Origin: Nitrospirota bacterium
GTDB taxonomy: Bacteria > Nitrospirota > UBA9217
Length of the DNA stretch: 29,596 nt
Direction of reading: 5' to 3'
Assembly (NCBI GenBank): GCA_029858565.1
Contig: JAOUEV010000046.1
Location: 1-29,596 of the forward strand
Shown here: positions 7,973 through 26,399 of the stretch, one piece after another
How the letters are laid out: every line of letters begins with the position of its first letter
Position numbering within the stretch: position 1 is the first letter of the stretch
Position numbers and translations under genes: made by a program
The notes under the pieces: model-generated
The model's database searches: none
Told to the model about the DNA's origin: nothing
What the model saw: only the letters and a program-made list of their open reading frames with translations

Positions 7973-7980
7973 TATTTTAT

Positions 7981-8018: not shown

Positions 8019-8102
8019 GTACTGATAACCATATCCGTATATACATATGCGTTGAAGCACGGTATAATGGAAAAAACCTGTTTGTACTGAAAGGAGCTGC
8101 CA

Positions 8103-8288: not shown

Positions 8289-8324
8289 CGATAGGCCGGC
8301 AATACTTCATGAGAATAATAACGC

Positions 8325-8421: not shown

Positions 8422-8469
8422 GTTGGCCCTTTCGTCATCTTCAAATTCACGAAGAAGGAGGAAATCATC

Positions 8470-8670: not shown

Positions 8671-8691
8671 GCTTTATACGTAGTTCACCCT

Positions 8692-8726
8692 AAGCAGGTT
8701 TCGGATTTTCCGGAGCCTGCTTTTTT
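8692..8726 (+). terminator. Rho-independent terminator after csp
   Basis: aagcaggtttcgga-ttt-tccggagcctgctt plus T-run. Confidence 0.8.
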
Positions 8727-8861
8727 ATTGTTCTCATGCCGGAAATAATCGATTGTGGAAAAACGGAGGCTGATGCGAATCCCTATTGCTAAGGAAAATC
8801 GTTGTAAAACTATATTATGATAGTGGCGTGGCAGTACGTGATTTCGCTCGATGCGAGGGCT

Positions 8862-9239: not shown

Positions 9240-9264
9240 AGACGATTCTCCAGGGAAAAAGGTG

Positions 9265-9363
9265 AACAAAAATGCCGCAAAAGACGCAGGTCTTTGCGGC
9301 ACGGCCTGTGCGATTTTCCAACTTCGCAAGATACATAGTCGTACTTTTAAAGCCGAAAAGCAA
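9265..9363 (-). promoter_or_regulatory. Promoter and terminator-like leader homologous to the csp leader
   Basis: On the minus strand: TTGCTT-17-GACTAT, then tgccgcaaagac / gtcttttgcggca followed by tttttgtt. Confidence 0.6.
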
Positions 9364-9718
9364 GAGCTTATTTCCCGGCCTAATTGCGAGAGACATTCTG
9401 TTTGGTCATGATATTATGAACCGGGCATGGTTTTCTCTTATACAAGCCCTCGGTGTTGAATGAGCATATTCACCTAAAGAACGCACCATCCAGATGATGA
9501 CCAATTTCGTGCAAAAAGTGCGCACGAATGTTTTGAATGCAACAACACGTCACTGATTGGCCATGCGCCCAGAGAGTATGACTGCGATAGATTGTCGTAT
9601 ATTGGTTCGTATAGACCATGTGGTCCATTCCAGAACGCTGATGGTCGTGTCGCGAGCCCGACTTCACATAGACTGCTAATGTAGAACTTCTTGCTCTTGT
9701 GGCACTTGATAAAATTCA

Positions 9719-9747
9719 TTGAAAAAGGGTTGTGATTGTTCCATAAT
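9719..9747 (+). promoter_or_regulatory. Putative sigma70 promoter of the radical SAM-mltA unit
   Basis: TTGAAA-17 bp-CATAAT. Confidence 0.5.
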
Positions 9748-9848
9748 GCCGAAGAAGGTATTTCGGCACAATTGCTGACGATCCGAGATGTACCGGCGGA
9801 TCTGCCTGTTAATCCGATCCAAAGTAATAAGCCACATCAGGAGATCCT

Positions 9849-11141: not shown

Positions 11142-11214
11142 ATGCCCATTTTCGCACGGAGACGCAGAGGCGCGGTGAATGGCTATAGACAAGACCGCAC
11201 AGCATCCTGCAGAT

Positions 11215-12426
11215 ATGTATAAAATACTATTCAGCATATTGTCATGTGTCGTGTTTCTTCTGACGTCCTGCGCCAAACCGCCGGTGACCAAGCCGGAGTT
11301 TGCCCTGGAGCAGGTATCCTGGTGGCGCGCCGGGCTCAAGGCCGATGACCTGGAGTTCCAGGGCCTGGCCGAGGCGGCACGTCAGAGCATGGAGTACTAT
11401 AAGAGACTTCCCGCTGACTCGTCATTTGTTTTCGGGCCGATACGTGTTACCGCCGGAGATATGGTTGTGACGCTCCAGAATCTTCTGCTGATCGTCGAGA
11501 ACACATCGCTGACGCCCGAGCTAAAGGTCGAACAGATCAAGAACGGCTTCGACATCTATCGCTCCGTTGGATCGAATGGCAGGGGAAAGGTCTTGTTCAC
11601 CGGGTATTATGAGCCGGTGCTTTCCTGCAGACGGACCGCCGATGATACGTATAAATTCCCGCTCTACAAGCGGCCCGACGACATACTTGAGATCGACTTA
11701 TCGCAGTTTGGCGAGAACTTCGGCAAGGACCGCATCTTCGGCAGGCTGAACGGGAAGAAGGTAATCCCCTACTTCAGCCGTCAGGAGATCGATCAGCAGA
11801 AACAGCTTGCAGGGAAGGGGCTGGAGGTCTTGTGGTGCGCTGATCTTGTTGACATCTACACGGTCCAGGTACAGGGATCGGGCAAGGCGGACCTGGGAAA
11901 CGGCGAGATCGTCGGCATTCTCTATGACGGTCAGAACGGCAGGCCTTATCGCGGAATCGGCAGATATCTGATCGATAGCGGAGCGATCCCGAAGGAGAAG
12001 ATGTCCATGCCGGCGATCCGCGATTACCTGAAAGCAAATCCCGAGAAGCTTTTCGATATATTGCACCAAAATCCGAGCTACGTGTTCTTCAAGGTCGAGA
12101 ACAAGCTGGCTGTGGGCAATATCAATGTACCGCTCACCGCACGGCGATCCATTGCGACTGATTACCGTCTTTTCCCGAAAGGCGCGCTGGCGCTGATCAG
12201 GACGGAGAAGCCGGTCATCGCCGAGGACGGAACGGTCAAGGAGTGGAACGCGTTCACCCGCTTTGTGATGAACCAGGATACCGGCGGAGCGATCCGGGGG
12301 GCGGGGAGGGTGGACCTGTTCTGGGGCCAGGGCAAGGAAGCGGAATTGTCAGCGGGGTATATGCAGCAGGAAGGGAAACTCTATTTCCTTCTCCGGAAAA
12401 AGGAAGAGAGAAACGATTCTTGGTAA
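11215..12426 (+). CDS. mltA: Membrane-bound lytic murein transglycosylase A family lipoprotein
   Basis: Lipoprotein signal (LLTSC), FTGYYEP, QVQGSG, NPSYVFF, and 3D domain QDTGGAIRGAGRVDLFWG. Start is 11215 or 11179. Confidence 0.92.
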   Translation: MYKILFSILSCVVFLLTSCAKPPVTKPEFALEQVSWWRAGLKADDLEFQGLAEAARQSMEYYKRLPADSSFVFGPIRVTAGDMVVTLQNLLLIVENTSLTPELKVEQIKNGFDIYRSVGSNGRGKVLFTGYYEPVLSCRRTADDTYKFPLYKRPDDILEIDLSQFGENFGKDRIFGRLNGKKVIPYFSRQEIDQQKQLAGKGLEVLWCADLVDIYTVQVQGSGKADLGNGEIVGILYDGQNGRPYRGIGRYLIDSGAIPKEKMSMPAIRDYLKANPEKLFDILHQNPSYVFFKVENKLAVGNINVPLTARRSIATDYRLFPKGALALIRTEKPVIAEDGTVKEWNAFTRFVMNQDTGGAIRGAGRVDLFWGQGKEAELSAGYMQQEGKLYFLLRKKEERNDSW

Positions 12427-12635
12427 ATGCAGAGATATCAGAGCACACAGAGGATAGAAGAAGTTTTTTCTTGGATATCGAAGAAATCCCGCTCATGGAA
12501 TAGAGAAGTTCCACCAACCAGTCAAACGAAGCGCACGCTCAGCTGCACCGCAGGTAATTGGCATTTTCTCCTCAGCTAAGTTCGTGCCGGACTTTCGTTT
12601 CTCTGTGCGATTGCCGTGCCCTCTGCCGTAGAAGC

Positions 12636-15600
12636 CTACCCGCCAATGATGCTCCGGTATAACCTCCTCGTCCTCTCATCAGGTTCGATATCCAGTTCCT
12701 TCCGAAGCGCAAGCTGGCACCGTTCGTAGGTCCGGACTGCTTTGCCACGAAGGCCATTGGCAACAGCATGTGTCATGAGCCAGCGGCAAGCTTTCTCATT
12801 ACACTGGTCAGCATCGAATAATCGCACCTGGTAGGCCATCGCGGTCTGGAGGTCCTGCTCGTTGTCTGCGATATCCGCTGCCTGTTCGAGCATTCTGAGA
12901 TAGGTCGTCCGCAGATCGTCACGAAGCAGAAGGGTCCAGTCCTCATACCTGTCTTCGGGCAGGAGGTCTCCCTGGTAGATCGCGAGCGCATGATCATAGA
13001 GCCGGAGAGAACGTGCATTATCTTTACCGTTCCGGCAACGGAAAGCCTCGTCTGCTGCGCTCCGGAAAGCATCTATATCCGTCCAGACCAGCGCACGGTC
13101 CAGGGACAGGTGTTCAGCATCGAAACGGACGCAGGAGCTTTGCGGCCCTGATGTCGAACCATTGTCGAGCGTCTTTCGAACACGATGGAGAAGGCTGCTG
13201 AGCACCGGGGCGTATCGTGCAGGGTCGCCGTTCGGCCAGATTGTTTCGATAACAATATCGCGGGAGAGCGGCTTTCCGTTGCCCGTGGCGAGCAACTTGA
13301 CAAGCTTTTTCGCCTGCCTGCCTTTCCATTCGCGTTCCCTGATCGCTTCGCCATTCCGCTCAATGCGAAATCCACCGAGGCAATGGATCCTGAGCAGCGG
13401 CGCTGCCGCCGGACGGCTGCGGTCAAGGAGCGCGGCACAATAGCCGGCGCAGATCCCGTTCATCACGGCTTCCTGCGCAAGGTCATGCAGTTCTCTCGGA
13501 GCAAGAGGAGCATAATAGGTGAAACCCCGCTCCTCGCCGATCGAGAAGCCCAGTTGTAAATGGCGATGAGCCTGCGCGGTCTTGTTCCTCATCAGATACA
13601 GGCTTGCGAGGATGAGGTGTCCGTTCGCCTCCTGCTGGGCCGCGCCGCTCTGGCGCAGCATGCGTATCGCTGTTTGCAGCTCTAGCTCCGCGCGTGCGAT
13701 TTCCCCCTGCTCCCGGAGGATTGCGCCGTCAGCAATGAGATAGATCGCGTGAAAGAGCCTGCTGTTCCCCCGCACCCCCGGAGCAAGAGCATGGTCCGAG
13801 AGCTTCTTGGCGCGGTCGAGCTTCCGCTGAAACAGACAGGCTAAGGCGAGAAAGTGCGATGCCGACAGGTTGAAGAACGCCTTGGCCGAAACCTCGCCCC
13901 GCTGCCGGCATTCATCGAGCAGTTTTTCCGCTCCGCGGTAATCTCCCTGGGCTATCTTGAGCCATCCATAGATATCGAGCAGCAGCAGGTCTATGGACTC
14001 GATGCGGTATTCCGTGGCGATCCGCCGTCCGGCATCAAGGGATTCCTGCGCAGCGCTAAAGTCGCCGACGAAGAGGCTGGTCATGGCCTGTACCAGAAAG
14101 AGCGCAGCTTCACCGCCCGGCTCATCAGTAGCCGCCTTTTGTGCTTCAAATCCTGCTGCGACCGTATCGTGTGCCAGTTGGAAATCGCCGTGATAGAGTG
14201 CGCAGGGCGTGAGATAGATGGCGCAGGAAATGAGCGAAAAATGATCACCTGTTGACCGGAACAGGTCTGTGGCCTTGCGCAGCGCATCGATCCCCTGGTG
14301 CAGTTTGCCCGTAAAGAACCAAGCAGTGCCAAGGGCAAGCAGGAGGGTCGCGCGTGCCTCTGGGGATGCGCGTTCCTGCTTCCGGAGGATCCTCTGCGCC
14401 TGGACTACAGCGCGCTCCATGCGCTGGAAGTCGCCGCCGCTGTGGAACGCAGCCTCAATGACCCCGCCGAGCGACAGCATCTGGCCGGCACTGTTCTTCT
14501 CCCGGCGGAAACCGGCCAGGGCCAGGTCGTAGAGCGAGAGCGCCTGCTTGGGATCGCTGAAGCGGCATTCCACGGCGCGGGCGAAAAGGAGCCAGGGCCG
14601 TTTTTGCAAGTGGAACGGAAGAAGATCTATCATCTGGAGCAGCGTTCTGATCTGACCGCGCGCGATGAGGTTCCTCCACGATCGTTCGAGAACATTTGCG
14701 GCTTTTGCATGCTGGTCCGATGCGATGAAAAGGCCTGCCGCCCGTACCGGATCGCCGTTCCGAACGAAGTAAGCAGCTGCGGCGCCGTATGCCCGTCTGA
14801 GATCCGATGCGCCTGCACTCGATGCGAACCGTGCCGCGAGGAACTCCCGGAATAACGCGTGGTAGCGAATAGCATCTCCTTCCTTGTTCGCGTCGATGAA
14901 CAGGTTGCGACGCGCAAGTTCGGCGAGCATCTCCGATACAGAACTCCGTCCCGGGGCGGCTTTCGCGGGCAGTCCCGTCAGGATGCACGCCAGCGGCACC
15001 GGGACCGCTTCGGCAAGAGAGGTACGGAGAAGGAACGCCTGCAGGCCCGGGGCAAGATGAGAGAAGACCTCATTGGCAAGGTAGTCGAATACCTGGTCCC
15101 GGAATCCGCGCTGGAGATCTTCAGGAATTGCGTCGTTCCGCTGATCTCCTTTGGTCATGAGATATTCATGTAAAAGCACCAGTCCGACTGCCCAGCCTTC
15201 GGTCATCCTGCATATGTCCGCTGCCCGGGGCCGGGACAGGTGTGTTCCGAACACCGAGCCGAACAACTCGATCACCTCGTTGTCGGTGAACCGCAGGTCC
15301 GCTGCGGACAGTTCCCCGACCGCGCGCTTCGACCGCAGACTGGCGAGAGCCATCTCCGGTTTTGTGCGGGAAAGGACCATGATGCGCACACCGGGCGGAG
15401 AAGTCTCTATGAGCTGGGACAGAAGTTCCGCTGTAGCGGGAGAATCAGCGAGAACATGATAGTTGTCGAAAACGATCACGCCGGGAGGAATGTCCCGAAA
15501 AAGCCTGCCGATCCACTGTGAGATGACCAGAGATGGATCGCTGGCACGGTAGCGGTCCCGGGGAATGACCGGCACGATCGGCACCTGGTTGGGAAAGATG

Positions 15601-15848
15601 CGGTGGAGCGCTTCAGCGAAGCGTGATAGGAAGAATGCGGGGTCCCCATCCTCGTTATCCAGGGTGTACCACACCGCCGGATCGGCCAGGGACCGCACAT
15701 GGTCGGCAGCAAGGGTACTCTTTCCCTGTCCTGCAGGGGCTTGGATGATCACCACTTTCTTGTCGCTCCAGGACGTAAGCTTTCCGAGCAGGCGCTCCCG
15801 CTCAAGGACCAGCGAAGATCGCGAAGGAATGAACTTTTGCGTGATCAT
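12636..15848 (-). CDS. MalT-like STAND NTPase transcriptional regulator with TPR region and C-terminal wHTH/BTAD (SARP-type) domain
   Basis: APAGQGKST Walker A, VFDNYH Walker B, TEGWAVGL, RYHALFREFL; C-terminal CLGGFRI...WTDIDAF...YQGDLL...ELDIEP. AGGAGG RBS favours a start at 15848. Confidence 0.9.
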   Translation of the reverse strand: MITQKFIPSRSSLVLERERLLGKLTSWSDKKVVIIQAPAGQGKSTLAADHVRSLADPAVWYTLDNEDGDPAFFLSRFAEALHRIFPNQVPIVPVIPRDRYRASDPSLVISQWIGRLFRDIPPGVIVFDNYHVLADSPATAELLSQLIETSPPGVRIMVLSRTKPEMALASLRSKRAVGELSAADLRFTDNEVIELFGSVFGTHLSRPRAADICRMTEGWAVGLVLLHEYLMTKGDQRNDAIPEDLQRGFRDQVFDYLANEVFSHLAPGLQAFLLRTSLAEAVPVPLACILTGLPAKAAPGRSSVSEMLAELARRNLFIDANKEGDAIRYHALFREFLAARFASSAGASDLRRAYGAAAAYFVRNGDPVRAAGLFIASDQHAKAANVLERSWRNLIARGQIRTLLQMIDLLPFHLQKRPWLLFARAVECRFSDPKQALSLYDLALAGFRREKNSAGQMLSLGGVIEAAFHSGGDFQRMERAVVQAQRILRKQERASPEARATLLLALGTAWFFTGKLHQGIDALRKATDLFRSTGDHFSLISCAIYLTPCALYHGDFQLAHDTVAAGFEAQKAATDEPGGEAALFLVQAMTSLFVGDFSAAQESLDAGRRIATEYRIESIDLLLLDIYGWLKIAQGDYRGAEKLLDECRQRGEVSAKAFFNLSASHFLALACLFQRKLDRAKKLSDHALAPGVRGNSRLFHAIYLIADGAILREQGEIARAELELQTAIRMLRQSGAAQQEANGHLILASLYLMRNKTAQAHRHLQLGFSIGEERGFTYYAPLAPRELHDLAQEAVMNGICAGYCAALLDRSRPAAAPLLRIHCLGGFRIERNGEAIREREWKGRQAKKLVKLLATGNGKPLSRDIVIETIWPNGDPARYAPVLSSLLHRVRKTLDNGSTSGPQSSCVRFDAEHLSLDRALVWTDIDAFRSAADEAFRCRNGKDNARSLRLYDHALAIYQGDLLPEDRYEDWTLLLRDDLRTTYLRMLEQAADIADNEQDLQTAMAYQVRLFDADQCNEKACRWLMTHAVANGLRGKAVRTYERCQLALRKELDIEPDERTRRLYRSIIGG

Positions 15849-16021
15849 AATGCAGGACCTCCTCATAGCGTGCGGGACGTTGTACGGGGACCCGATGATT
15901 ATACGTAATTCGAAAAAAGAGGGGAACTACCCGTTCGGGTAGTTCTGAAAGAACCTGCCGGGCCTTTCCCGGCAGCAGTGCCGGGATCACGATACCCCGG
16001 ACCACATCCCACGCGGATTTG

Positions 16022-16050
16022 TTGAAAAAAGCAATCACATCCTCTATAAT
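16022..16050 (+). promoter_or_regulatory. sigma70 promoter, probably giving a leaderless mRNA
   Basis: TTGAAA-17-TATAAT ending 6 nt before ATG 16057. Confidence 0.65.
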
Positions 16051-16056
16051 GGCGCC

Positions 16057-16251
16057 ATGCCCTATAAGGTTGTTGAGACAAGTACGGTCACTGACGAGGC
16101 GATCGAGCGCATTGTGAACGAATGGACCGCAAATGGATACTCCTTCTGGAGCATCCATTTTGTAACCAATGAATCGTCGCGCAGACCGGCGATGGCGTTC
16201 ATCTTTTTTCTGGATGACGGCGACCAGAAGCGCTCCGGGAGCGGCGACTGA
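16057..16251 (+). CDS. Small DUF4177-like protein
   Basis: YKVVE...IERIVNEWTANGY pattern; lies 3 nt upstream of the K+ channel gene. Confidence 0.7.
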   Translation: MPYKVVETSTVTDEAIERIVNEWTANGYSFWSIHFVTNESSRRPAMAFIFFLDDGDQKRSGSGD

Positions 16252-16254
16252 TCC

Positions 16255-17286
16255 ATGCACCTCATCAGGCAACTCAAGGTATCCATCGCCGCGTTGGCGG
16301 TCCTCGTTGCGCTCGGGACCGGCGGCTACATGGTCATCGAAGGCTGGCGGGTGCTCGACGCCTTTTACATGACCATCATCACGATTGCGACAGTTGGGTA
16401 CCGGGAGGTACACGAACTGAGCGACCGCGGGATGGTCTTCACGACGCTGCTGATCGTTTTCGGCGTGAGCGTCCTTTGGTACACCATCGGAAAGTTCGCC
16501 CAGATCATGTTCGAGGGGCAACTGGAAAGCTTCATCGGGAGGAAGAAGGTGGAAAAGCAGATCGAATCCCTGAAGGACCACTATATCATCTGTGGGTATG
16601 GCAGGATCGGGGCGCTCATCTGCAAGGAGTTCTCGGCCCGGCCGGTTCCCTTTGTTGTGGTAGAGAGCAATCCATCGGTGCTTGAAAAGCTTGAACACGA
16701 TGGGTATCTGTTCATCCGGGGCAGCGCAACCGAGGACGAGTCCCTGCTGAAGGCGGGCATCAAGCGCGCAAAAGGTTTGATCGCCGTGGTGACATCGGAT
16801 ACCGAGAACGTGTACATCACCCTGACAGCGCGGGGGCTGAACCCGGAGCTTTTTATCCTGGCGCGGGCCGGGGAAGAGGGGTCGGAGGTCAAGCTCAAAC
16901 GAGCGGGTGCGAACAAGGTCATTTCCCCCTACCACATCGGCGGGAGCCGAATGGCCCAGGCGATCCTGCGGCCGAACGTCGTGGATTTCATCGAGATCGC
17001 GACCGCGCGGGAGCATCTGGACCTGCAGATAGAGGAGATCTGCATATCCGATACGTCATCGTTCGTCGGAGAGAACCTGGTGAGTTCGGGTTTTCGCAAA
17101 CAGACCGGCGTGATCATCGTGGGTATCAAGAAGGCAACGGGAAAGATGGTGTTCAATCCGGACTCCCATACCCGCATTGACGGAAGGGATACGCTCATCG
17201 TGCTGGGAGAGCCGTCAGCGATCATGAAGCTTGAACAGATGGTTGGTGTACAACGGATGCATGGGGGACAGCGTCCCGACGCCTGA
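16255..17286 (+). CDS. Potassium channel protein (2-TM pore plus TrkA-N/TrkA-C RCK domains)
   Basis: TIATVGYRE selectivity filter and ICGYGRIG Rossmann motif. Confidence 0.92.
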   Translation: MHLIRQLKVSIAALAVLVALGTGGYMVIEGWRVLDAFYMTIITIATVGYREVHELSDRGMVFTTLLIVFGVSVLWYTIGKFAQIMFEGQLESFIGRKKVEKQIESLKDHYIICGYGRIGALICKEFSARPVPFVVVESNPSVLEKLEHDGYLFIRGSATEDESLLKAGIKRAKGLIAVVTSDTENVYITLTARGLNPELFILARAGEEGSEVKLKRAGANKVISPYHIGGSRMAQAILRPNVVDFIEIATAREHLDLQIEEICISDTSSFVGENLVSSGFRKQTGVIIVGIKKATGKMVFNPDSHTRIDGRDTLIVLGEPSAIMKLEQMVGVQRMHGGQRPDA

Positions 17287-17386
17287 TCCTGCCTCCCTGC
17301 TCCAAGACCGCGCAGCCTCCCCGTTCAGGTGTCATCGACAGGGCGGAAAAACTCCTGTCTTTCCAGAAGGTTCCGAGCCAAAACAA

Positions 17387-17415
17387 TTGACAACCCTATG
17401 CCGGGAGAGTATAAT
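17387..17415 (+). promoter_or_regulatory. Consensus sigma70 promoter of the gsp operon
   Basis: TTGACA-17 bp-TATAAT, 31 nt before the gspC start. Confidence 0.8.
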
Positions 17416-17446
17416 CCTCAAGAACCAAGAATAGGGTGGTGAGGTT

Positions 17447-18277
17447 GTGAAAGAGTCATCCACGATCCATACAGTGTTCCTTGTAGCCCTTCTGACCGTC
17501 TCGGCCTATCTCCTCGCGGATACGGTGGATGCCATGATCGGCAGAAGCCTTGATGCCGCGCCGAAGTATTCTGGCTCGATCACGCAGGAGCGCGCTGGAG
17601 TAGAACCTCGGCGGGCCCTTGCCGATTACTCCTCCATCCTTGACCGCGGGCTGTTCGGCGAGGGCAAGGCGCCCGTGAACGGCTCCGCGGCCGGTCCTGT
17701 TTCCAACTATACGCTCATCGGCACAGTCGAAGGATCGGTCTTTGCCGGCGCGGTGCTGCAGGAGGGGACCGGTCCGCAGACCTTCTACCGATTGCGCGAG
17801 AAACTTCCCGACGGATCGCAGATCATCAAGGTGTCCCGCGACCGCGTTACGCTCAAGCGGAGCGACGGGTCCACGCAGGAACTCCAGATCATCGATGACA
17901 CCAAGATCGTGAATGTGGCAAGCAGACCGGCCGCCGTCGGTGTTCGCAGGATGGGGGAAGGCAAATTCATGGTCGATGAACGGGAGATCGCATCGAGCAC
18001 GGAGAATTTGAACAAGCTGCTTACTCAGGCGCGTGCGATGCCCTTTATCGATGGCGGGAAGACCGTGGGATTCCGCATCAGCGAGATCGTGCCGGGCAGC
18101 CTCTATGAGAAGATCGGTCTCGTGAACGGCGACGTCATCCAGCGGGTCAATTCCCAGGACGTCGATGATCCCGGTAAATTTTTCCAACTGTACCAGGGGC
18201 TCAAGGATGAGAAGAGCATCTCGGTCGATCTGCTTCGCAACGGCCAGCGTCAAACACTGAACTACGACATCCAATGA
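17447..18277 (+). CDS. gspC: Type II secretion protein C (TM, HR and PDZ domains)
   Basis: N-terminal TM, LIGTV HR domain, C-terminal PDZ (GFRISEI...GLVNGDVI); first gene of the operon. Confidence 0.88.
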   Translation: MKESSTIHTVFLVALLTVSAYLLADTVDAMIGRSLDAAPKYSGSITQERAGVEPRRALADYSSILDRGLFGEGKAPVNGSAAGPVSNYTLIGTVEGSVFAGAVLQEGTGPQTFYRLREKLPDGSQIIKVSRDRVTLKRSDGSTQELQIIDDTKIVNVASRPAAVGVRRMGEGKFMVDEREIASSTENLNKLLTQARAMPFIDGGKTVGFRISEIVPGSLYEKIGLVNGDVIQRVNSQDVDDPGKFFQLYQGLKDEKSISVDLLRNGQRQTLNYDIQ

Positions 18278-18292
18278 TCAGGCTGCATATCC

Positions 18293-18369
18293 GGGACGCG
18301 GTGACGCGGCGGCGGGCATGAGAATGTTCCCGCGACCTGAAACGCCCCTTCCCCGCGTCGCACTGTCCC
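18293..18369. repeat. Imperfect inverted repeat built on GACGCGG octamer-period units (gspC-gspD spacer)
   Basis: gggacgcggtgacgcggcggcggg (18293-18316) versus cccttccccgcgtcgcactgtccc (18346-18369). Confidence 0.6.
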
Positions 18370-18391
18370 TGCCCACTCTCGGAGGTTCCGC

Positions 18392-20329
18392 GTGAAAAGA
18401 CTACCAGCCCTGCTGCTCGCGGGGCTCATGAGCGTCGGCATCGGCCATGCCCAGGATACGGCCGTTCCGCCCGCTCCCGACAAGCTGGATGCGCCGGCAA
18501 TCAAGGCCGGTGACGATTACATCACCCTCAATTTCAGCAACATCGACATCGCGGCGCTGGTGAAGGTCATGAGCGAGTATACGCGCAGGAACTTCATCCT
18601 TGACGAGCGCGTGACCGGCAAGGTCACGCTCATGACCCCCACCAAGATATCTTACGACGAGGCCTATCAGGTCTTCCTGTCCGCTCTCGAGATAAAGGGC
18701 TTCACCGCGGTGGAGGACGGGACCATCACCCGCATCATCCCTACGGCAATGGTGAAGCAGAGCGGACTGAAGGTGATGCAGGACGGTTCGATGCACGGCG
18801 AGGGCTACGTTACCAAGCTCATTCGCGTGACCTATGTGAATCCCCAGGACCTGGTCAGGACCCTTTCGCCGCTCATCACCAAGGATGGCACGCTTATCGC
18901 GAATCCCGCCACCAATTCGCTTATCATTACCGACGCCGTATATTCCATCAGAAAGATCGAGAAGCTTATCGAGATCATGGACGTCCCTGCGCCTGCGGGC
19001 AAGGGAAAGATCAACGTCTATTACCTCAAGAACGCCAACGCCGAGGACATCGCCAAGGTGATGCAGGCCCTCGTGTCCCGCCTTCCGGCGCCGGCCGCCG
19101 GGGCCGCGGCCCAGCCCGCGGGACCCGCAACGATCCTCGAGGGCGCGGTCACCATCACCTCGGACAAACTTACCAACTCGCTGATCATCGTCGGATCGCC
19201 AGGGGATTTCGAGACGGTCCGTGATGTGATACAGAAGCTCGACATCCGGCGGCGACAGGTCTATGTGGAGGCGGCCATCATCGAAATGGGGCTTGCCAAA
19301 CAGCGCGAGCTTGGTTTCGAGTTCCGCGCCATGAGCCCGCTGGACAACAGCAGGATCACCGGGGTCGGCGGTACGAACTTCGGCGGCATTGTGCCGGCCA
19401 CGGTCCAGGGCCCGGCCGCATTCGCCAACTTCAACGGCCTGGCCGTGGGTGCGGTAAAGGGGACCTTCACGTTCAAGGGGCAGGAGTTCCTGAACGTGGG
19501 AGCGCTGCTCCGGGCGATCCAGAGCGACAGCGACGTCAATGTGCTCTCGACGCCGAACATTCTCACGAGCGACAATCAGAAGGCCGAGATCATGGTGGGC
19601 CAGAACGTGCCCTTTACCACCGGCCAGACGCAGAACGCCACGACCGGCAGCGGCAGTTTCTTCAATACCGTCGAACGGAAGGACGTGGGCATCAAGCTGG
19701 CGATCACCCCGCAGATATCGTCGGATGACAGCGTGAAGCTGGACATCAACCAGGAGATATCCGACGTGGTCGCGTCGTCCACGGTGAACGCCGGCGGTCT
19801 GATCACCAACAAGCGCTCTGCGATCACGACCGTGGTGGTGAAGGACCGCGAGACCATGGTCATCGGCGGCCTGATCCGGGACAATGTGACCACTGCCGAG
19901 AGCAAGGTGCCGTTCCTGGGTGACATCCCGATCCTCGGATGGCTCTTCAAGTACAAGACCACGCGGATCGAGAAGACGAACCTCATGATCTTCATCACGC
20001 CCTACATCATCAAGAACGAGGAAGATTCCGCGGCGATCACGAAGAAGAAGACCGACGGTCTCGAAGAGTTCCGCAAGGAGCAGCATTTTGAAAAGAAGAA
20101 GATAGAACCGGCGCTCCAGAGCAAGACCACGGTGACCGCTCCGGCGCCCCCGCCGTCGGGCGAACACGCCATTGAAAGCAAACCGACTTCGACGGTATCA
20201 CCTGTGGCGCCTGTTCCTGACCTGTTAGTTCCGTCATCCGCGCCGACAACATCACTACCCGATGCAGGAGCCCCGCCTGTTGCGGAGACCGGCGAAAAGC
20301 CCAAGTTTCCCGCGGAGGGAGGCCGGTGA
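18392..20329 (+). CDS. gspD: Type II secretion secretin D
   Basis: Signal peptide, N domains, QVYVEAAIIE, VGQNVP, and the secretin signature KVPFLGDIPILGWLFK. Confidence 0.95.
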   Translation: MKRLPALLLAGLMSVGIGHAQDTAVPPAPDKLDAPAIKAGDDYITLNFSNIDIAALVKVMSEYTRRNFILDERVTGKVTLMTPTKISYDEAYQVFLSALEIKGFTAVEDGTITRIIPTAMVKQSGLKVMQDGSMHGEGYVTKLIRVTYVNPQDLVRTLSPLITKDGTLIANPATNSLIITDAVYSIRKIEKLIEIMDVPAPAGKGKINVYYLKNANAEDIAKVMQALVSRLPAPAAGAAAQPAGPATILEGAVTITSDKLTNSLIIVGSPGDFETVRDVIQKLDIRRRQVYVEAAIIEMGLAKQRELGFEFRAMSPLDNSRITGVGGTNFGGIVPATVQGPAAFANFNGLAVGAVKGTFTFKGQEFLNVGALLRAIQSDSDVNVLSTPNILTSDNQKAEIMVGQNVPFTTGQTQNATTGSGSFFNTVERKDVGIKLAITPQISSDDSVKLDINQEISDVVASSTVNAGGLITNKRSAITTVVVKDRETMVIGGLIRDNVTTAESKVPFLGDIPILGWLFKYKTTRIEKTNLMIFITPYIIKNEEDSAAITKKKTDGLEEFRKEQHFEKKKIEPALQSKTTVTAPAPPPSGEHAIESKPTSTVSPVAPVPDLLVPSSAPTTSLPDAGAPPVAETGEKPKFPAEGGR

Positions 20330-22014
20330 GACGCCTGCTCGGCGAGATACTCGTTGAGTCCGGACTTGCCGCAGAGCGGCTCAAGAAGGCCCTCGATCTT
20401 CAGAAGAAGCGCGGCGGAAGGATCGGAACGCTGCTCGTCCGCCTGAACTTCGTGACCGAGGCAGAGGTGCTGACCGCTCTGGGCAGTCAGATCGGCCTTC
20501 CCTTTCAGCCCGAGCTTGGCGAGATCGACCGCGAGCTCGCGCTCAACGTTCCCATCACCTACGCGAAAAAGGCCGTGGTCATTCCGCTCAGGCGTGAGAA
20601 CGGTACTGTTGTCGCGGCAACCGCCGAACCGCTGTTGCTCTCCACCATTGACGACCTGCGGGTCCTGCTGGGCGCGGAGGTCTCGCTTGTTCTTGCCCCT
20701 TCGGAGACCATCCTCGACAACCTGAACCGGCTGCACAGCGAGGACCTGAACAAGGCCGAGGACACCGCCCAGGAGATGGAGGAAGAAGACCTTTCCTTCC
20801 TGGCCGCGGAGCTCGAAGAGCCCACGGACCTGCTCGAAGCGACCGATGACGCGCCGATCATCCGGCTGGTGAACTCGCTCCTGTCCCAGGCCATCCGCGA
20901 ACGGGCCAGTGACATCCACATTGAACCCTTTGAAAAAGAGGTCGTGGCCCGGTTCCGCATCGACGGCATCCTGTACAATATCCTGACGATCCAGAAGCGT
21001 TTTCAGGCCAGCATTGCCTCGCGCGTCAAGATCATGTCCGGCCTGAACATCGCCGAGAAGCGGCTTCCCCAGGACGGGGGCATGCGGATCAAGATCGGCG
21101 GCAAGGATGTGGATGTGCGCGTGTCCATCGTGCCCACGGCATTCGGCGAACGCATCGTGCTCCGGCTTCTGTATCGCGAGAGCGCGCTCCTGGCCCTGGA
21201 CAAGATCGGTTTTTCCGGCGACACCCTGGACCGGTTCAATGATCTCATTGAACGGCCCCACGGCATCATCCTGGTCACGGGTCCTACGGGCAGCGGCAAG
21301 ACCACGACCCTGTACGCGTCGCTTTCCAAGATCAATTCGCCGGACAAGAACATCATCACCATCGAAGACCCCATTGAATACCAGCTCAAGGGCATTGGAC
21401 AGATCCAGGTGAATGCCAAGATCAGCCTGACCTTTGCCGCGGGGCTGCGCTCCGTGCTGCGGCAGGACCCTGACGTTATCCTCGTGGGCGAGATCCGGGA
21501 TTCCGAGACCGCGGAGATCGCGATCCAGGCCGCGCTTACCGGCCACCTGGTCTTTTCCACGCTCCACACGAACGACGCTGCCGGCGCAGTGACGCGGCTC
21601 CAGGACATGAAGATCGAGCCATTCCTCATCTCGTCATCGGTGCTGGGCATTTTGGCGCAGCGGCTGGTGCGTGTGCTCTGTCCCGAATGCCGGGAGCCCT
21701 ACCAGATGCCTGCCCTGGAGATGACCGAGCTGGAGATCCCGGCGACAGGCGAACATCCGACCGTGTACCGGGCGAAAGGGTGTCCCGCCTGTTTCCAGAC
21801 CGGATACCTGGGGCGCTCGGCGATCTACGAACTGCTTGATATCAATGACGAGGTGCGCCAGCTCATCATGAAGAACGCCGACGCCTCGACCATCAAATCC
21901 TACGTCGTGAAAAAAGGAATGCGGACCCTGCGTCAGGACGGCGCGGATAAGGTGCTCAAGGGAATCACCTCGGTGGACGAAGTCGTGCGGGTGACACAGA
22001 AGGAATCGCAGTAG
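20326..22014 (+). CDS. gspE: Type II secretion ATPase E
   Basis: ASDIHIEP, GPTGSGKTT, TIEDPIEY, LRQDPD, tetra-Cys motif (CPEC/CPAC). Confidence 0.97.
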   Translation: MRRLLGEILVESGLAAERLKKALDLQKKRGGRIGTLLVRLNFVTEAEVLTALGSQIGLPFQPELGEIDRELALNVPITYAKKAVVIPLRRENGTVVAATAEPLLLSTIDDLRVLLGAEVSLVLAPSETILDNLNRLHSEDLNKAEDTAQEMEEEDLSFLAAELEEPTDLLEATDDAPIIRLVNSLLSQAIRERASDIHIEPFEKEVVARFRIDGILYNILTIQKRFQASIASRVKIMSGLNIAEKRLPQDGGMRIKIGGKDVDVRVSIVPTAFGERIVLRLLYRESALLALDKIGFSGDTLDRFNDLIERPHGIILVTGPTGSGKTTTLYASLSKINSPDKNIITIEDPIEYQLKGIGQIQVNAKISLTFAAGLRSVLRQDPDVILVGEIRDSETAEIAIQAALTGHLVFSTLHTNDAAGAVTRLQDMKIEPFLISSSVLGILAQRLVRVLCPECREPYQMPALEMTELEIPATGEHPTVYRAKGCPACFQTGYLGRSAIYELLDINDEVRQLIMKNADASTIKSYVVKKGMRTLRQDGADKVLKGITSVDEVVRVTQKESQ

Positions 22015-22048: not shown

Positions 22049-23266
22049 ATGCCTGTCTACGAATACAAAGGGGTCACCAGCGCCGGCAGGAACGTTTCGG
22101 GCGTGCAGGACGGCGAGGGCCTGAAGGCGGTCCGGGCGAAGCTCAAGAAGGACGGCATCGTGGTCCTGGAGATCCGCGAGGGCGGATCGTCCCGCGCTGC
22201 ACGGAACAGGAATATCAGCTTTGGCGGCGGCCGGGTGAGTCCCGCCGACCTTGCCAACGCCACCCGTCAGCTGGCCACGCTCCTGTCGTCGGGCCTGCCG
22301 CTCATGGATGCCTTGAACGTGCTCGTGGACCAGGAAGAGGGGTCGACGCTCAAGGGATCGCTCTCGTCTGCGCGCGACGCGGTGCGTGAAGGCTCGTCGC
22401 TTGCCGACGCCCTGCGCCAGAGCCCCCGGGTGTTCTCGCCGCTTTATGTGAACATGGTCTCGGCCGGAGAGGTAAGCGGCACGCTCGAGATCACGCTTGC
22501 CCGGCTTGCGGACTTTCTGGAGGAGCAGACGCGCTTCAGGAACAAGCTTGCCGCGGCTCTGGCCTATCCGGCGCTCATGACGCTGATCGGTATCGGCGTG
22601 CTGTTCTTCCTGTTCAGCTTTGTCCTTCCGCGTGTCGTGGGCATGTTCGAGGATATGCGGCAGCAGCTTCCGTTCATTACCCTGGCGCTCCTGGGTGTCG
22701 TGGGTTTTCTGTCTCGTTTTTGGTGGCTCATCCTGCTGCTCGCGGGCGGAGCCGCTTATTATCTTCGCAGGTATTTCAGTACTGCTGCAGGGAAGGAACA
22801 GCTGGACAGCTGGCTGCTCAGGGCGCCGGTCGCGGGCACGCTGATCAGGATGATCTCGGTATCCCGGTTCACGCGCACCCTGGGGACCCTGCTCGAAAGC
22901 GGGGTCCCGGCGCTCACGGCCCTGGACATTGTCCAGAGCGTGATCGGGAACACGATCCTTGCGGACGCGGTCCGAAAGGCGCGCGAGAACGTGCGCGAAG
23001 GCGAATCCATCGCAGACCCGCTCCGCAGGAGCGGTCTCTTTCCGCCGGTGGTGGTCCAGATGGTGGCGGTGGGAGAAAAGAGCGGAGAACTGGAAAAGAT
23101 GCTGCTCAAGGTATCCGATTCCTTTGACCGGACCGTGGAATCGCGCATCGCGGCGCTCATGTCCCTGGTGGAACCCATCATCATCCTTGTGATGGGCTTG
23201 ATCATCGGCACGATCGTGATCGCGATCATGCTGCCGATCCTGCAGATGAGCTCGGGAGTGAGATAA
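22049..23266 (+). CDS. gspF: Type II secretion inner-membrane protein F
   Basis: MPVYEYKG start and two T2SSF repeats (QLATLLSSGLPL...AGEVSGTL; GEKSGEL...EP). Confidence 0.96.
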   Translation: MPVYEYKGVTSAGRNVSGVQDGEGLKAVRAKLKKDGIVVLEIREGGSSRAARNRNISFGGGRVSPADLANATRQLATLLSSGLPLMDALNVLVDQEEGSTLKGSLSSARDAVREGSSLADALRQSPRVFSPLYVNMVSAGEVSGTLEITLARLADFLEEQTRFRNKLAAALAYPALMTLIGIGVLFFLFSFVLPRVVGMFEDMRQQLPFITLALLGVVGFLSRFWWLILLLAGGAAYYLRRYFSTAAGKEQLDSWLLRAPVAGTLIRMISVSRFTRTLGTLLESGVPALTALDIVQSVIGNTILADAVRKARENVREGESIADPLRRSGLFPPVVVQMVAVGEKSGELEKMLLKVSDSFDRTVESRIAALMSLVEPIIILVMGLIIGTIVIAIMLPILQMSSGVR

Positions 23267-23268: not shown

Positions 23269-23303
23269 CGTAAGTCGTAAGGGGTAAGTGGTAAGGGGTA
23301 AAA
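23269..23303 (+). repeat. Tandem heptamer repeat SGTAAGK x5 (gspF-gspG spacer)
   Basis: cgtaagt cgtaagg ggtaagt ggtaagg ggtaaaa. Confidence 0.75.
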
Positions 23304-23332: not shown

Positions 23333-23767
23333 ATGAAGAACCAGAGAGGCTTTACCCTTATTGAGATCATGGTGGTGGTGATCATCCTCGGACTGCTGGC
23401 AGGTCTGGTCCTGCCGAAGATCCTGGGCAGGGAAGAGGAAGCGCGGATCGGTACGGCCAGGACACAGATCCGGTCGCTCGAGAGCGCCTTGGACGGATTC
23501 AAACTCGACAATGGATTTTATCCCGCGACCGATCAGGGGCTGGACGCGCTGATCAAGAAGCCTGAGTCGGGCCGCGTCCCGGCCAAGTGGCGCGAAGGCG
23601 GTTATCTCAAGCCTGCGCGCATCCCCAAGGACCCCTGGGGCCATGATTATCATTACTTCTCGCCGGGCAATGAGAACCGGGAGTATGAGATCATCTCCTA
23701 CGGCGCTGATGGTGAACAGGGCGGTGAGGGCAAAGGTGCGGATATCGAGAGCTGGAAGATCGAGTAA
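23333..23767 (+). CDS. gspG: Type II secretion major pseudopilin G
   Basis: AGGAG RBS; MKNQRG|FTLIEIMVV, YP.T.QGL.AL, KDPWG, SYGADG motifs. Confidence 0.97.
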   Translation: MKNQRGFTLIEIMVVVIILGLLAGLVLPKILGREEEARIGTARTQIRSLESALDGFKLDNGFYPATDQGLDALIKKPESGRVPAKWREGGYLKPARIPKDPWGHDYHYFSPGNENREYEIISYGADGEQGGEGKGADIESWKIE

Positions 23768-24378
23768 TGCAAAGACAATTTCGGATTTCGGATCGCGGAT
23801 TGCGGATTGAACGCCGAGAGAAAAATCCGAACCGGCTTTCGTCCGTGTTGCCTGCAATCGAGAATCCGCAATTCGCAATCCGAAATAGGAACGGCTTCAC
23901 CCTGGTTGAACTGGGTGTGGTAATTGTCGTGCTCGGGATCATGCTGACCCTGGTGATCCCGTCGCTGAACGAGATCACTGGCTCGAATCTGAAGAAGAGT
24001 GCACGGCATCTTACCGGGACGATCCGGTTCCTGCGGGACGAGGCGGAAGCCAAAAAGAAGATCTTCCGTCTTCGGTTCGATGTGTCGAACGGGCACTACT
24101 GGGCGGAAGCGCCGGTCCTGATCGACGATGATACCGTGGAGTTCAAAAAGATCGATTCGGTGATATCCACCGAGGGAAGTTTGTCCGGCCAGACGGTGAT
24201 GCGCAGCATCCATGTCGGCAGTCACCCCGATGATCCGTTCATCCTGTTCACGCCTGACGGATGGGTTGAGAAGTCCTTCATCTATCTGCAGGACGGGGAC
24301 GGAAAGGACTACACGCTTCTGGTGAAACCGCTCACCGGCGACACGGAACTCCTCGAGGGCCGGGTGGAGGAGAAGTGA
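23767..24378 (+). CDS. gspH: Minor pseudopilin H-like protein with 43-aa repeat-derived leader
   Basis: ATG overlaps the gspG stop (TAATG); G|FTLVEL methylation motif; operon position. Confidence 0.8.
   Translation: MQRQFRISDRGLRIERREKNPNRLSSVLPAIENPQFAIRNRNGFTLVELGVVIVVLGIMLTLVIPSLNEITGSNLKKSARHLTGTIRFLRDEAEAKKKIFRLRFDVSNGHYWAEAPVLIDDDTVEFKKIDSVISTEGSLSGQTVMRSIHVGSHPDDPFILFTPDGWVEKSFIYLQDGDGKDYTLLVKPLTGDTELLEGRVEEK
23778..23886. repeat. Heptamer (ATTKCGG) inverted-repeat hairpin inside the gspH leader
   Basis: Arms 23778-23808 and 23856-23886; 25 of 31 positions are Watson-Crick complementary by manual count. Confidence 0.9.
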
Positions 24379-24842
24379 ATAATAGTGCGGAGTGCGAAGT
24401 GCGGAATGCGGAGTTAAGGTCCAGCAAGAAACAGATCTCGTTTTCATCATTTGTTTTCTCTTCGCACTTCGCACTCCGCACTTCGCACTCGAAGGGCTTT
24501 ACCCTCCTCGAGGTCATGATCGCTGTCGCGATATTATCCCTGGTGATCGTATCGCTGATCGGGCTCAAGAACCGGAGCGTCCAGGATGTGGTGTTCGCCG
24601 AGCATATGACCACGGCAACGCTCCTGGCAAAGCGGGTGATGACCGAGACTCTCCTGGTCAAACCGCTCGTTCCCCTGGAAAAGGACGGTCAGTTCGACGA
24701 CGAGGAGTTCAAGGACTATCTTTGGAAGAAAACCGTCTCCTTAACGCCGATTCCCGACGCCGGCATTTATGAGGTCCGGGTCGCGGTCCTCTGGAAAGAG
24801 GGCGAACGCGAGGAGATGGTCGAACTGGTGAGCTATGAATAG
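24375..24842 (+). CDS. gspI: Minor pseudopilin I with 41-aa repeat-derived leader
   Basis: GGAGGAG RBS; GTG overlaps the gspH stop; G|FTLLEVMIAVAI. Confidence 0.85.
   Translation: MNNSAECEVRNAELRSSKKQISFSSFVFSSHFALRTSHSKGFTLLEVMIAVAILSLVIVSLIGLKNRSVQDVVFAEHMTTATLLAKRVMTETLLVKPLVPLEKDGQFDDEEFKDYLWKKTVSLTPIPDAGIYEVRVAVLWKEGEREEMVELVSYE
24384..24489. repeat. Heptamer (AGTGCGR)x4 inverted-repeat hairpin inside the gspI leader
   Basis: Arms 24384-24413 and 24460-24489 (YCGCACT x4). Confidence 0.92.
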
Positions 24843-25560
24843 AATCAGTGCGGAGTGCGGAGTGCGGAGTGCGGAGTACAAGATCCACGACACACTACGG
24901 TGCACTTTAACTTCGCACGTCGCACTTCGCACTCCGCATTCAAAAGGGTTTACCCTCATCGAGGTGCTGCTTGCCCTGGCGATATTCGCGGGCGTGGCGA
25001 CCGTGCTCTACAGTGTATTCGCGACAACAGGAAGCACTGTCGCACAGGCGGAACAGGTCCGTGATGGAACCGACGCAGCGCGGACCCTGATGTCCCGCAT
25101 CGCGACCGATGTGGCGAACGCTTTTTATTACGCGAAAACGATCGAGCCGACCTTTTTCTATGGCCGTAAAGTGGAAGAGGACGGAGGGGCAGACAGGAAA
25201 ATACGACTGGACAGCCTGTTCCTGACAACGCTCACGAACTGGCGGAGACCCGACACCAGGGAGATGGAGCTCTGGGAGCTGGGATACTATTTCAAGGACC
25301 GGCCTGATGGAAAGGGCCGGGCGCTGGTCCGCAGGGAAAAGCGGGAACTGAGCGCGGATGTGCCACCGCTCGAAGGCGGTGTGGAATACGAGATCACGGA
25401 CCAGATCGCAAGCCTCCGGTTCCGGTATTTCAACGGTTCGGCCTGGATTGATGAGTGGGACAGTAAAAATCAGAACGCCCTTCCCAAGGCGGTTGAGATA
25501 GTGCTGGTCATGGCCGCGGGCGGGGTCTACGCGACCTCTGTGGAGATCGGGATAAAGTAG
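24835..25560 (+). CDS. gspJ: Minor pseudopilin J with 38-aa repeat-derived leader
   Basis: G|FTLIEVLLALAI; C-terminal WIDEWDS...LPKAVEI typical of GspJ. Confidence 0.88.
   Translation: MNRISAECGVRSAEYKIHDTLRCTLTSHVALRTPHSKGFTLIEVLLALAIFAGVATVLYSVFATTGSTVAQAEQVRDGTDAARTLMSRIATDVANAFYYAKTIEPTFFYGRKVEEDGGADRKIRLDSLFLTTLTNWRRPDTREMELWELGYYFKDRPDGKGRALVRREKRELSADVPPLEGGVEYEITDQIASLRFRYFNGSAWIDEWDSKNQNALPKAVEIVLVMAAGGVYATSVEIGIK
24847..24940. repeat. Heptamer (AGTGCGG)x4 inverted-repeat hairpin inside the gspJ leader
   Basis: Arms 24847-24877 and 24910-24940. Confidence 0.92.
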
Positions 25561-26399
25561 TGAGCGGAGCGCGGATGACGACGATGAGGATCGGCGCGGA
25601 AACAGGAACTCTGATTCGAAATGACCGGGGCGTTGCGCTCCTGATCACCCTCCTGGTGACGACATTGCTGCTCGCGCTTGTGTTCGAGTTCGCCTATGGA
25701 ACGAGGGTGAGCCTCCGGGCAGCGGCGAACTTCCGAGACAGTCAGCGGGCCTACTTCCTGGCCCGGTCGGGGGTGAGGATCTTTACAAAGTATAAGGACC
25801 TGAAGGAAATGATCCCCCAGGGTGAATGGGGTGTCGTTCCCGAAGTGAGCCAGGGCGATACGGAAGTGAAGGTCATGTGGGAGGATGAGGCGGGGAAGAT
25901 CGGATTTACCGATGTAAAGTCGAATCCGGTCACGCAGACCGTGTTGCGGTCATTCCTTGAGGACGTCAAGAAGATAGATACCACGGTATTCGACCGGATG
26001 GTCGATCCCGCGAGCACGATCAACTTCACGATCCTGCTGCAGGAGCTCAGGCAGTACATGAGCGATGAGGAGTACGGCAAGGTAGCGAACGCTCTGACCG
26101 TGGGCAAGTGGAGCAACATCAATATCAATACAGCGTCGGCGGACGTGCTCCAAAGCATTGGCATCAGCCAGGGGGCAGTCGATATCATTGTTCAGAACCG
26201 GCAGAGAACCCCCTATACGTCGGTGCCCGGAGAGATCATTGGTGACAACATCAAGATCAACAACGTGAACGCTGTAAACTATTTGACGACGAAATCGAAC
26301 AACATCTATACGGTGCATTGCATCGCCACGGTCGGAGGCTACAGCAAGGAAGCTGTCGCGATCATCGGGTCTCAAATCCCCTATTGGAGGATCTTGTGA
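25560..26399 (+). CDS. gspK: Minor pseudopilin K
   Basis: RG|VALLITL, QRAYFLARSG, DEAGKI, ININTAS. Start uncertain (25560, 25575 or 25584). Confidence 0.88.
   Translation: MSGARMTTMRIGAETGTLIRNDRGVALLITLLVTTLLLALVFEFAYGTRVSLRAAANFRDSQRAYFLARSGVRIFTKYKDLKEMIPQGEWGVVPEVSQGDTEVKVMWEDEAGKIGFTDVKSNPVTQTVLRSFLEDVKKIDTTVFDRMVDPASTINFTILLQELRQYMSDEEYGKVANALTVGKWSNININTASADVLQSIGISQGAVDIIVQNRQRTPYTSVPGEIIGDNIKINNVNAVNYLTTKSNNIYTVHCIATVGGYSKEAVAIIGSQIPYWRIL

Follow-up and report, generated by a model that had tools for sequence, protein, structure and literature searches.

Why should three consecutive genes of a bacterial secretion operon each begin with a long palindrome, placed immediately ahead of the site at which the encoded protein is expected to be cut? 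The question is raised by a 29,596-nt stretch of DNA from a Nitrospirota bacterium (contig JAOUEV010000046.1), here called the window, in which the type II secretion system (T2SS) genes gspH, gspI and gspJ each carry a tandem-heptamer hairpin between the start codon and the G/FTL cleavage site of the encoded pseudopilin (the slash marks the cut). The leaders are 43, 41 and 38 aa long respectively, compared with 6 aa in GspG, the major pseudopilin. The window is contig C115 of a genome (G000) of 3.92 Mb in 144 contigs with 57% G+C, and coordinates given below are positions in the window unless a contig is named. An earlier note on this DNA offered two answers, a selfish repeat that uses prepilin leaders as a safe harbour or an mRNA hairpin with a function. 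We consider it probable that the hairpins belong to a heptamer repeat that has proliferated throughout the genome and is tolerated in a cytoplasmic leader that prepilin peptidase removes.

Tandem-heptamer hairpins in the leaders of gspH, gspI and gspJ

In each hairpin a heptamer is repeated 3.4-4.6 times, and the complementary heptamers come after a spacer of unrelated sequence, an architecture described in the earlier note and recovered here both by Tandem Repeats Finder and by an inverted-repeat search. Tandem Repeats Finder reports period-7 arrays at 23778-23809 and 23863-23886 in gspH, at 24384-24414 and 24460-24489 in gspI, and at 24847-24877 and 24910-24938 in gspJ. The inverted-repeat search pairs 23778-23814 with 23850-23886 in gspH (37 nt, 78% complementary, 35 nt between the arms), 24390-24414 with 24466-24490 in gspI (25 nt, 92%, 51 nt) and 24849-24882 with 24905-24938 in gspJ (34 nt, 82%, 22 nt). 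Read on the + strand, the gspH 5' arm (23778-23814) starts 11 nt past the gspG stop and contains the units TTTCGGA, ATCGCGG and ATTGCGG, and its 3' arm (23850-23886), with units CCGCAAT, TCGCAAT and CCGAAAT, ends 6 nt short of the G(-1) codon. The gspI arms extend over 24384-24414 (AGTGCGG, AGTGCGA and AATGCGG) and 24460-24490 (CTTCGCA and CTCCGCA), and in gspJ four perfect AGTGCGG units lie in the 5' arm at 24847-24882 and ACTTCGC, ACGTCGC and ACTCCGC units in the 3' arm at 24905-24941.

All four pseudopilin genes are on the + strand. gspG (23333-23767) has the short leader MKNQRG/FTLIE, with no insert in its coding region, and is followed by the minor pseudopilin gene at the gspH position (23767-24378; leader 23767-23895, with the G(-1) codon at 23893-23895), by gspI (24375-24842; leader 24375-24497) and by gspJ (24835-25560; leader 24835-24948). 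These open reading frame (ORF) coordinates agree with the earlier description of the leader lengths and of starts that overlap the previous stop: the gspH ATG and the gspG TAA have one base in common, gspI begins with a GTG that overlaps the gspH TGA (GTGA), and gspJ overlaps gspI by 8 nt, its ATG being 5 nt upstream of the first base of the TAG that ends gspI. In Pfam searches the prepilin motif N_methyl (PF07963) is above its cut-off in all four proteins, at residues 39-63 of GspH, 37-61 of GspI and 35-56 of GspJ, and a separate motif scan concurs. GspG also matches T2SSG (1e-39) and GspJ matches T2SSJ (1e-8); the T2SSI match of GspI is weak and below the cut-off (17.2 bits, cut-off 25), and because N_methyl is the sole Pfam match of GspH, the name of this gene rests on its position. 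The genome encodes a prepilin peptidase (PF01478, C20:8622-9008, 60.4 bits).

Starts downstream of the hairpins, which the earlier note had named as grounds for abandoning its proposal, are not available to gspI or gspJ, neither of which has an in-frame ATG, GTG or TTG 3' of the hairpin. The later in-frame starts of gspH are one GTG and one TTG, both in the loop, so that the 3' arm would be translated even if one of them were used. The RNA of the leader regions is predicted to form stable structures, with folding energies of -45.0, -54.5 and -59.5 kcal/mol for gspH, gspI and gspJ and z values of -2.7, -6.2 and -7.8 against dinucleotide shuffles; the gspH fold is thus modestly beyond chance, and the gspI and gspJ folds far beyond it. 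Among the contigs of four metagenome runs, one of 215 nt (run X3) crosses the gspJ hairpin without gaps and at equal length. Read depth piles up on the arrays because the same repeat occurs at other loci and in other organisms, and contigs break there.

The inserts are kept in frame in related genomes

We compared the orthologous locus in 21 other genomes of the same Nitrospirota family and in five from other families of the phylum. In the 21 family genomes, which are not independent of one another, 40/57 gspG-H-I-J junctions are expanded by at least 60 nt, and the coding frame is free of stops in all 40 of them, compared with 16/40 and 12/40 for the other two frames. With about 35% of frames open by default this is not a chance outcome, and it suggests strongly that selection keeps the inserts readable and that the upstream start is the real start. 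Because openness is restricted to the coding frame, the inserts in the three leaders are most simply explained as being translated by read-through. Frame-broken versions, which the earlier note had proposed to look for among orthologues, are absent from the expanded junctions.

The start codon holds its position relative to the preceding stop whether or not an insert is present, at -1 or -23 for gspI (once -14, twice +6), at -5 (or -8/-11) for gspJ and mostly at +2 to +9 for gspH. The distance from the preceding stop to the G(-1) codon ranges from 4 to 208 nt within the family and from 1 to 63 nt in the five out-group genomes, whose junctions contain no arrays. Short leaders are also found within the family, in gspH of G001 (VKSKG, 5 aa) and G024 (MKKG, 4 aa), and in gspJ of G004, G011, G012, G013 and G015 (7-13 aa), and these alleles display the uninvaded state. 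gspG was located in 17 of the 22 family genomes, and each has an ATG 6-12 codons ahead of G(-1) and no insert in the coding leader.

Where inserts are present, a few N-terminal codons precede them and the last 1-4 codons before G(-1) follow, and the inserts vary in form. Many leaders contain solo arrays instead of hairpins (for example gspI of G016, gspH and gspI of G019, gspI of G021, and gspI and gspJ of G024), and an inverted repeat scoring at least 14 is present in 17 of 62 leader regions. The type of unit at each junction differs between genera and even within a genus, the gspJ 5' arm being built of AGTGCGG in G000, ATTTCGG/ATTGCGG in G003 and AGTTCGG in G001, and in several relatives the gspH start codon is itself the ATG of the first AATGCGG unit. 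Palindromes that are not heptameric occupy the same leader site in gspH and gspJ of G007 and in gspJ of G021; the arms of the G007 palindromes are built on a GGGGAGAGG-type core, and the G021 palindrome is a 23-nt inverted repeat. The gspI and gspJ inserts of G017 (contig C60) are identical at 94/103 positions, loop included, compared with 64/104 in the next 100 nt, so a whole insert can be copied from one leader to the neighbouring one. This points to recent copying between these two leaders, likely by way of the conserved sequences that flank both sides.

A lineage-specific family of heptamer arrays

The three hairpins are far from alone. G000 contains 239 period-7 arrays, compared with 11, 17 and 11 in three genomes simulated with a second-order Markov model, and 121 of them, about half, form one super-family whose commonest unit is A-[T/G/A]-T-[G/T]-C-G-G. 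Position 1 of the unit is A in 95%, position 2 is T (185), G (153) or A (85) and only six times C, position 3 is T in 93%, position 4 is G (346) or T (67), and the remaining positions are C, G and G (93-96%). The commonest unit has no stop codon in any frame of either strand. Other heptamer families in the genome have the units GAGACGA, GTAAGGG/GTGAGGG and GTAGCCR. The longest array (C102:245-362) comprises about 17 units of GAGACGA/GAGACAA, and since it lies near a contig end its real length may be greater.

A three-unit pattern, with one mismatch allowed, matches G000 163 times, compared with 7 for the reversed control. Within the family it occurs in 38 of 44 genomes, frequently with 50-300 matches; most other families of the phylum have few matches or none. 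Its abundance varies about 80-fold within one genus (163 in G000, 2 in G001 and 161 in G003), and the gspI and gspJ leaders of G001, the genome with the low count, nevertheless hold other types of heptamer. Arrays are found in either orientation, singly or as inverted pairs around a unique spacer, and 23 of those in G000 form strong hairpins. When the loops of these 23 hairpins that measure at least 20 nt were compared with the genome by BLAST, they matched nothing but themselves, the exceptions being one weak match and one identical pair near contig ends; the arrays are thus not copies of one mobile element.

Arrays lie at gene borders and are enriched in removable leaders

Between genes there are 111 of the 239 arrays, and 41 more straddle a gene end. 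A further 38 are no more than 200 nt from an ORF start, 6 are near ORF ends, and 43 are found deeper within ORFs. Most intergenic arrays are in co-directional spacers (82), with 12 in divergent and 6 in convergent spacers and 11 at contig edges, and in co-directional spacers the array begins a median of 16 nt past the upstream stop. The arrays of gspH, gspI and gspJ, which start 11, 6 and 5 nt past the previous stop, are in line with this pattern.

The earlier note had suggested scanning the genome for enrichment in prepilin or signal-peptide leaders, and the distribution is indeed not random. Judged by eye at 29 ORF starts, 11 arrays are in a 5' untranslated region (UTR) with a plausible start just downstream, and 16 are necessarily translated at least in part. 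Fourteen of these 16 precede a signal peptide, a lipoprotein signal or a prepilin motif, compared with a baseline of 33% for an N-terminal hydrophobic segment (p = 9e-6); the two exceptions are RsmH-like and CbiG-like genes. Arrays are present in 4/14 genes with a prepilin motif and in 25/2832 other genes (odds ratio 45, Fisher p = 8e-6). Long leaders filled with arrays or hairpins also occur in a second pilin cluster (C109:8162-10900), the first two pilins of which have short leaders, and in a lone pilin-like gene (C14:164105-164821).

Removable leaders are not the only coding sites. In-frame arrays interrupt HypF (two sites; C18:43508-45928), ValS (C88:11637-14378), CbiD (three sites; C76:10548-11702), Mfd (C40:14619-18188), HisF (C47:7699-8553) and a transketolase-like gene (C144:61018-63102). 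The Pfam matches of these enzymes are strong and are stretched by the inserts, which add about 10-30 aa, such as SAECGVR or PHSALRT repeats; the transketolase-like gene holds a whole hairpin. Several other genera also have repeat-derived peptides at both HypF sites, built from other types of unit; in G004 and two out-group genomes the sites are short. Recurrent occupation of a site is thus a general trait of the repeat and not a peculiarity of pilin leaders. One of the out-group HypF orthologues (G027:C16:8945-11266) has a single in-frame TGA within the match. The cobalamin cluster that includes CbiD (C76, approximately 5900-19100, minus strand) is dense in arrays, with at least 17 in 13 kb, and some of these encode the hydrophobic core of the CbiM- and CbiN-like N-terminal signals, TTGTCTC units being read as LLVSCHLSLVS. 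The safe-harbour proposal of the earlier note is therefore partly supported, as prepilin leaders are enriched, and has to be broadened to a repeat of 239 arrays that also resides within enzymes.

A proposed origin of the long leaders

These data are consistent with the following scenario. The three hairpins would be local members of a lineage-specific, genome-wide family of tandem heptamers, whose arrays spread or expand across the genome and persist only at harmless sites, namely between genes, in 5' UTRs, in frame within surface loops of enzymes, and especially in N-terminal leaders that are later removed. Translation of gspH, gspI and gspJ would begin at the ancestral coupled start codon overlapping the stop of the preceding gene, and the ribosome would pass through the hairpin to make a hydrophilic leader of 38-43 aa. 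This repeat-encoded segment would remain in the cytoplasm while the hydrophobic segment enters the membrane, and prepilin peptidase would then cleave after G(-1) and discard it, presumably with little effect on the mature pseudopilin. Class III leaders lie in the cytoplasm, differ in length and are cut on that side of the membrane (PMC10191384). As a heptamer array gives one 7-aa repeat whichever frame is read, and stops are absent from the main units, only the total length and the loop must suit the frame, and purifying selection would hold the surviving inserts in frame and stop-free. Spread among the neighbouring pseudopilin genes was probably aided by copying between their conserved 5' ends.

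Several points weigh against this scenario. No mechanism of spread was found; the unique loops exclude copies of a single mobile element, and no array lies within 2.5 kb of any of 12 matches to the Y1 transposase domain. The degeneracy of the unit is position-specific, with T, G or A but almost never C at position 2 (185, 153, 85 and 6) and five positions 93-96% invariant, which decaying junk would not obviously show and which points to either a recognition constraint or very fast turnover. About 70% of the gspH, gspI and gspJ junctions are occupied across many genera, with unit types that differ at the same site, and selection for leaders that are long or structured could account for this. 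An effect on initiation would also be expected from stems of -45 to -60 kcal/mol that start 10-14 nt past the start codon. Finally, genes in G000 were called with a crude home-made Markov caller that takes the longest ORF, and the division of the N-terminal arrays into secreted and cytoplasmic was made by eye.

Alternative explanations

A role for the hairpins as functional mRNA elements, in which the stem makes translation of the minor pseudopilins dependent on coupling and lowers their yield relative to GspG, or shields the upstream mRNA from 3' exonucleases, would account for the position and stability of the stems and for the absence of inserts from the coding leader of gspG in all 17 genomes in which gspG was located, when 40/57 gspH, gspI and gspJ junctions from 21 genomes are expanded. 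It seems unlikely, as the structure is not conserved: a strong inverted repeat is present in 17/62 leader regions, many leaders have solo arrays or nothing, and close relatives manage with leaders of 4-13 aa. The same arrays also reside within enzymes and in unrelated 5' UTRs. The sense fold is stronger than the antisense fold in 31/43 leader regions (Wilcoxon p = 4e-4), but this advantage is equal in control regions upstream of gspG and is thus an effect of composition. The earlier note took many arm mismatches to be G-U compatible and saw in this a sign of selection at the RNA level; the arms of 12 heptamer leader hairpins contain 295 Watson-Crick pairs and mismatches that are 9 G-U, 7 A-C and 29 other, and with no excess of G-U (9 vs 7) we reject that argument. 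No terminator-like site was found on the + strand 3' of the hairpins. The Rfam matches, all to microRNA precursors, are below threshold (22-34 bits, compared with gathering scores of 73-135) and represent generic hairpin noise.

The constraint on the unit suggests a different kind of function, in which a lineage-specific factor that binds RNA or DNA recognises the arrays, or the arrays act as ribosome-loading pads, with the minor pseudopilins as part of a regulon and the inverted copies masking the pads. Since C is nearly excluded at position 2, each unit contains ATG, GTG or TTG, and GGA or GGAG is positioned 6-7 nt upstream of the start codon of the next unit; a unit of the form A-D-T-K-C-G-G thus pairs a start codon with a motif at Shine-Dalgarno distance from the next one, and an array offers starts in all three frames and no stop. 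The use of the ATG of an AATGCGG unit as the gspH start in several relatives, and the clustering of arrays at gene starts and stops, with their co-directional spacers and median of 16 nt past the upstream stop, fit this, and a similar proposal has been made for the TAACTGA heptamers found just upstream of start codons in Beggiatoaceae (PMC4679880). But the arrays are found in both orientations and in frame inside enzymes, where regulation is improbable, their number varies about 80-fold within one genus (163, 2 and 161), and no candidate factor was identified, and we regard this explanation as less likely than an mRNA element. Intermediate in rank between the two is a composite possibility, itself improbable, that the arrays form a family-wide cis-acting code: the units would be kept at orthologous sites (pilin leaders and enzyme loops) across genera, homogenised throughout the genome by concerted evolution or a dedicated enzyme, and read by a specific factor or the ribosome to set the translation of hundreds of genes, with the inverted arm as a built-in mask that makes the minor pseudopilins strictly dependent on coupling. 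A regulatory or recognition role of either of the two functional kinds, mRNA element or factor site, carries more weight when both are taken together, and even so remains doubtful.

Two further explanations concern the reading frame. Arrays could act as contingency loci, in which gain or loss of a 7-nt unit shifts the frame and switches minor pseudopilins on and off; a 5' coding region with a tandem unit of a length not divisible by three is a layout shared by phase-variable genes, such as those with the pentamers of Neisseria opa. This is very improbable, as 0/40 expanded junctions (21 genomes) are out of frame, the arrays are short (3-5 imperfect units) and spread over about 240 loci including essential enzymes, and no 7-nt indel was seen in the contigs of four metagenomes, a comparison of low power in which contigs conceal rare variants. 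Least probable of all, to the point of being hardly credible, is that processing, excision or ribosomal bypass takes the hairpins out at the RNA level or passes over them, leaving a short protein leader. It has no direct support; the inserts are placed exactly between the N-terminal codons and the last 1-4 codons ahead of G(-1). As skipped inserts would require no upkeep of frame or stops, a coding frame that is open in 40/40 cases, compared with 16/40 and 12/40 for the other frames, counts against it.

Comparison with other repeat systems

A proliferating repeat held in frame by selection has a precedent in the Rickettsia palindromic elements (RPE), dispersed hairpin palindromes found in frame at tolerated sites in coding regions and regarded as selfish DNA. 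In behaviour the heptamer arrays are closest to these, as they too include dispersed hairpin palindromes, lie in frame in genes and can be interpreted as selfish DNA under the filter of selection. A conserved sequence of approximately 100-150 bp is common to RPE copies, whereas here only the heptamer arms are shared, the loops are unique and there is no full-length consensus; the arms here are moreover built of tandem repeats, solo arrays make up many of the copies, and the lineage is a different one, Nitrospirota. A common core of the RPE kind was looked for by BLAST of the loops against the genome and rejected.

In sequence type, the nearest counterparts of the arrays are the heptamer repeats dispersed in Beggiatoaceae, Cyanobacteria and Xanthomonas. 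The short tandemly repeated repetitive (STRR) sequences of cyanobacteria are direct repeats of heptamers. TAACTGA direct repeats have been described in Beggiatoaceae, Cyanobacteria and Bacteroidetes (PMC4679880), and GGGAATC in Xanthomonas and GGGGA(T/C)T in Nostoc (PMC4692102), and both accounts describe them as mainly intergenic. The Nitrospirota family is likewise far above chance, restricted to a lineage, mainly intergenic and near gene starts, and it shares with the STRR, TAACTGA and GGGAATC repeats a presence at many loci and occasional inverted pairs. It differs from TAACTGA, which carries stops, in that its main units are stop-free, and its arrays can thus lie in frame within genes and leaders. 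Enrichment in prepilin or signal-peptide leaders is not mentioned in the portions covered of PMC4679880 (its section on repeats within ORFs lies outside these) and PMC4692102, and the literature searched yielded no account of heptamer arrays from either Nitrospirota or prepilin leaders.

Likenesses to other systems are more limited. Contingency loci such as Neisseria opa also have tandem repeats of a unit not divisible by three at the leader-coding 5' end, but here no frame-switched alleles were seen (0/40), and the arrays are short, imperfect and genome-wide, including housekeeping enzymes. REP (repetitive extragenic palindromic) sequences and BIMEs (bacterial interspersed mosaic elements), associated with RAYT (REP-associated tyrosine) transposases, and MITEs (miniature inverted-repeat transposable elements) are short dispersed intergenic hairpin palindromes and resemble the arrays that lie between genes. 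A link to REP and RAYT was rejected, since the 2.5 kb around each of the 12 Y1_Tnp matches are free of arrays and arrays are also intragenic; a MITE was rejected too, as the arms look like terminal inverted repeats but enclose no conserved core, and no partner transposase was found. The 12 Y1 (IS200/IS605-type) domain matches in G000 include C138:22351-22680, C88:30680-31009 and C66:2795-3118, and several are in open frames of approximately 290-340 aa; a typical TnpA is shorter. Coding palindromes in mitochondrial genes of Nematomorpha (PMC6649704) and tandem repeats that create disordered protein regions in Borg elements (PMC9879509) are similar in that repeats or inverted repeats embedded in coding sequence keep the frame and add new peptide segments. 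They differ in organism and type of repeat, and in that the leader peptide here is proposed to be discarded.

Implications for leaders and annotation

If the proliferating-repeat explanation is correct, these arrays represent a second, independent kind of selfish DNA inside genes, besides the Rickettsia elements, and one that is built of tandem heptamers. The three adjacent pseudopilin leaders would illustrate how a discarded protein segment can serve as a sink for repeat DNA, and the orthologue series how selection holds 40/40 inserts in frame. There are also practical consequences, in that automatic start calls and signal-peptide predictors will mishandle these genes, and leaders of 38-73 aa stretch the usual assumptions for class III signal peptides. 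The arrays raise the questions of what generates the same heptamers at hundreds of loci, why unit types differ within one genus and yet fill the same sites, and whether prepilin peptidase and the signal recognition particle can handle long leaders that contain cysteine.

Other features of the operon and the window

The remainder of the operon supports the T2SS context, with T2SSE, T2SSF, T2SSG, T2SSJ, T2SSK and T2SSL/GspL_C all above their Pfam cut-offs. gspE (20326-22014) and gspF (22049-23266) precede the pseudopilin genes, and gspK (25560-26399, + strand), which has no heptamer array, follows them; the operon also contains a gspL-like gene. The spacer between gspF and gspG, which is the gspG 5' UTR, holds a solo array of GTAAGKG heptamers (23269-23301, + strand) with stops in all forward frames. 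A further short heptamer array in the window, at 4519-4545, consists of 3.9 copies of AATTCCG.

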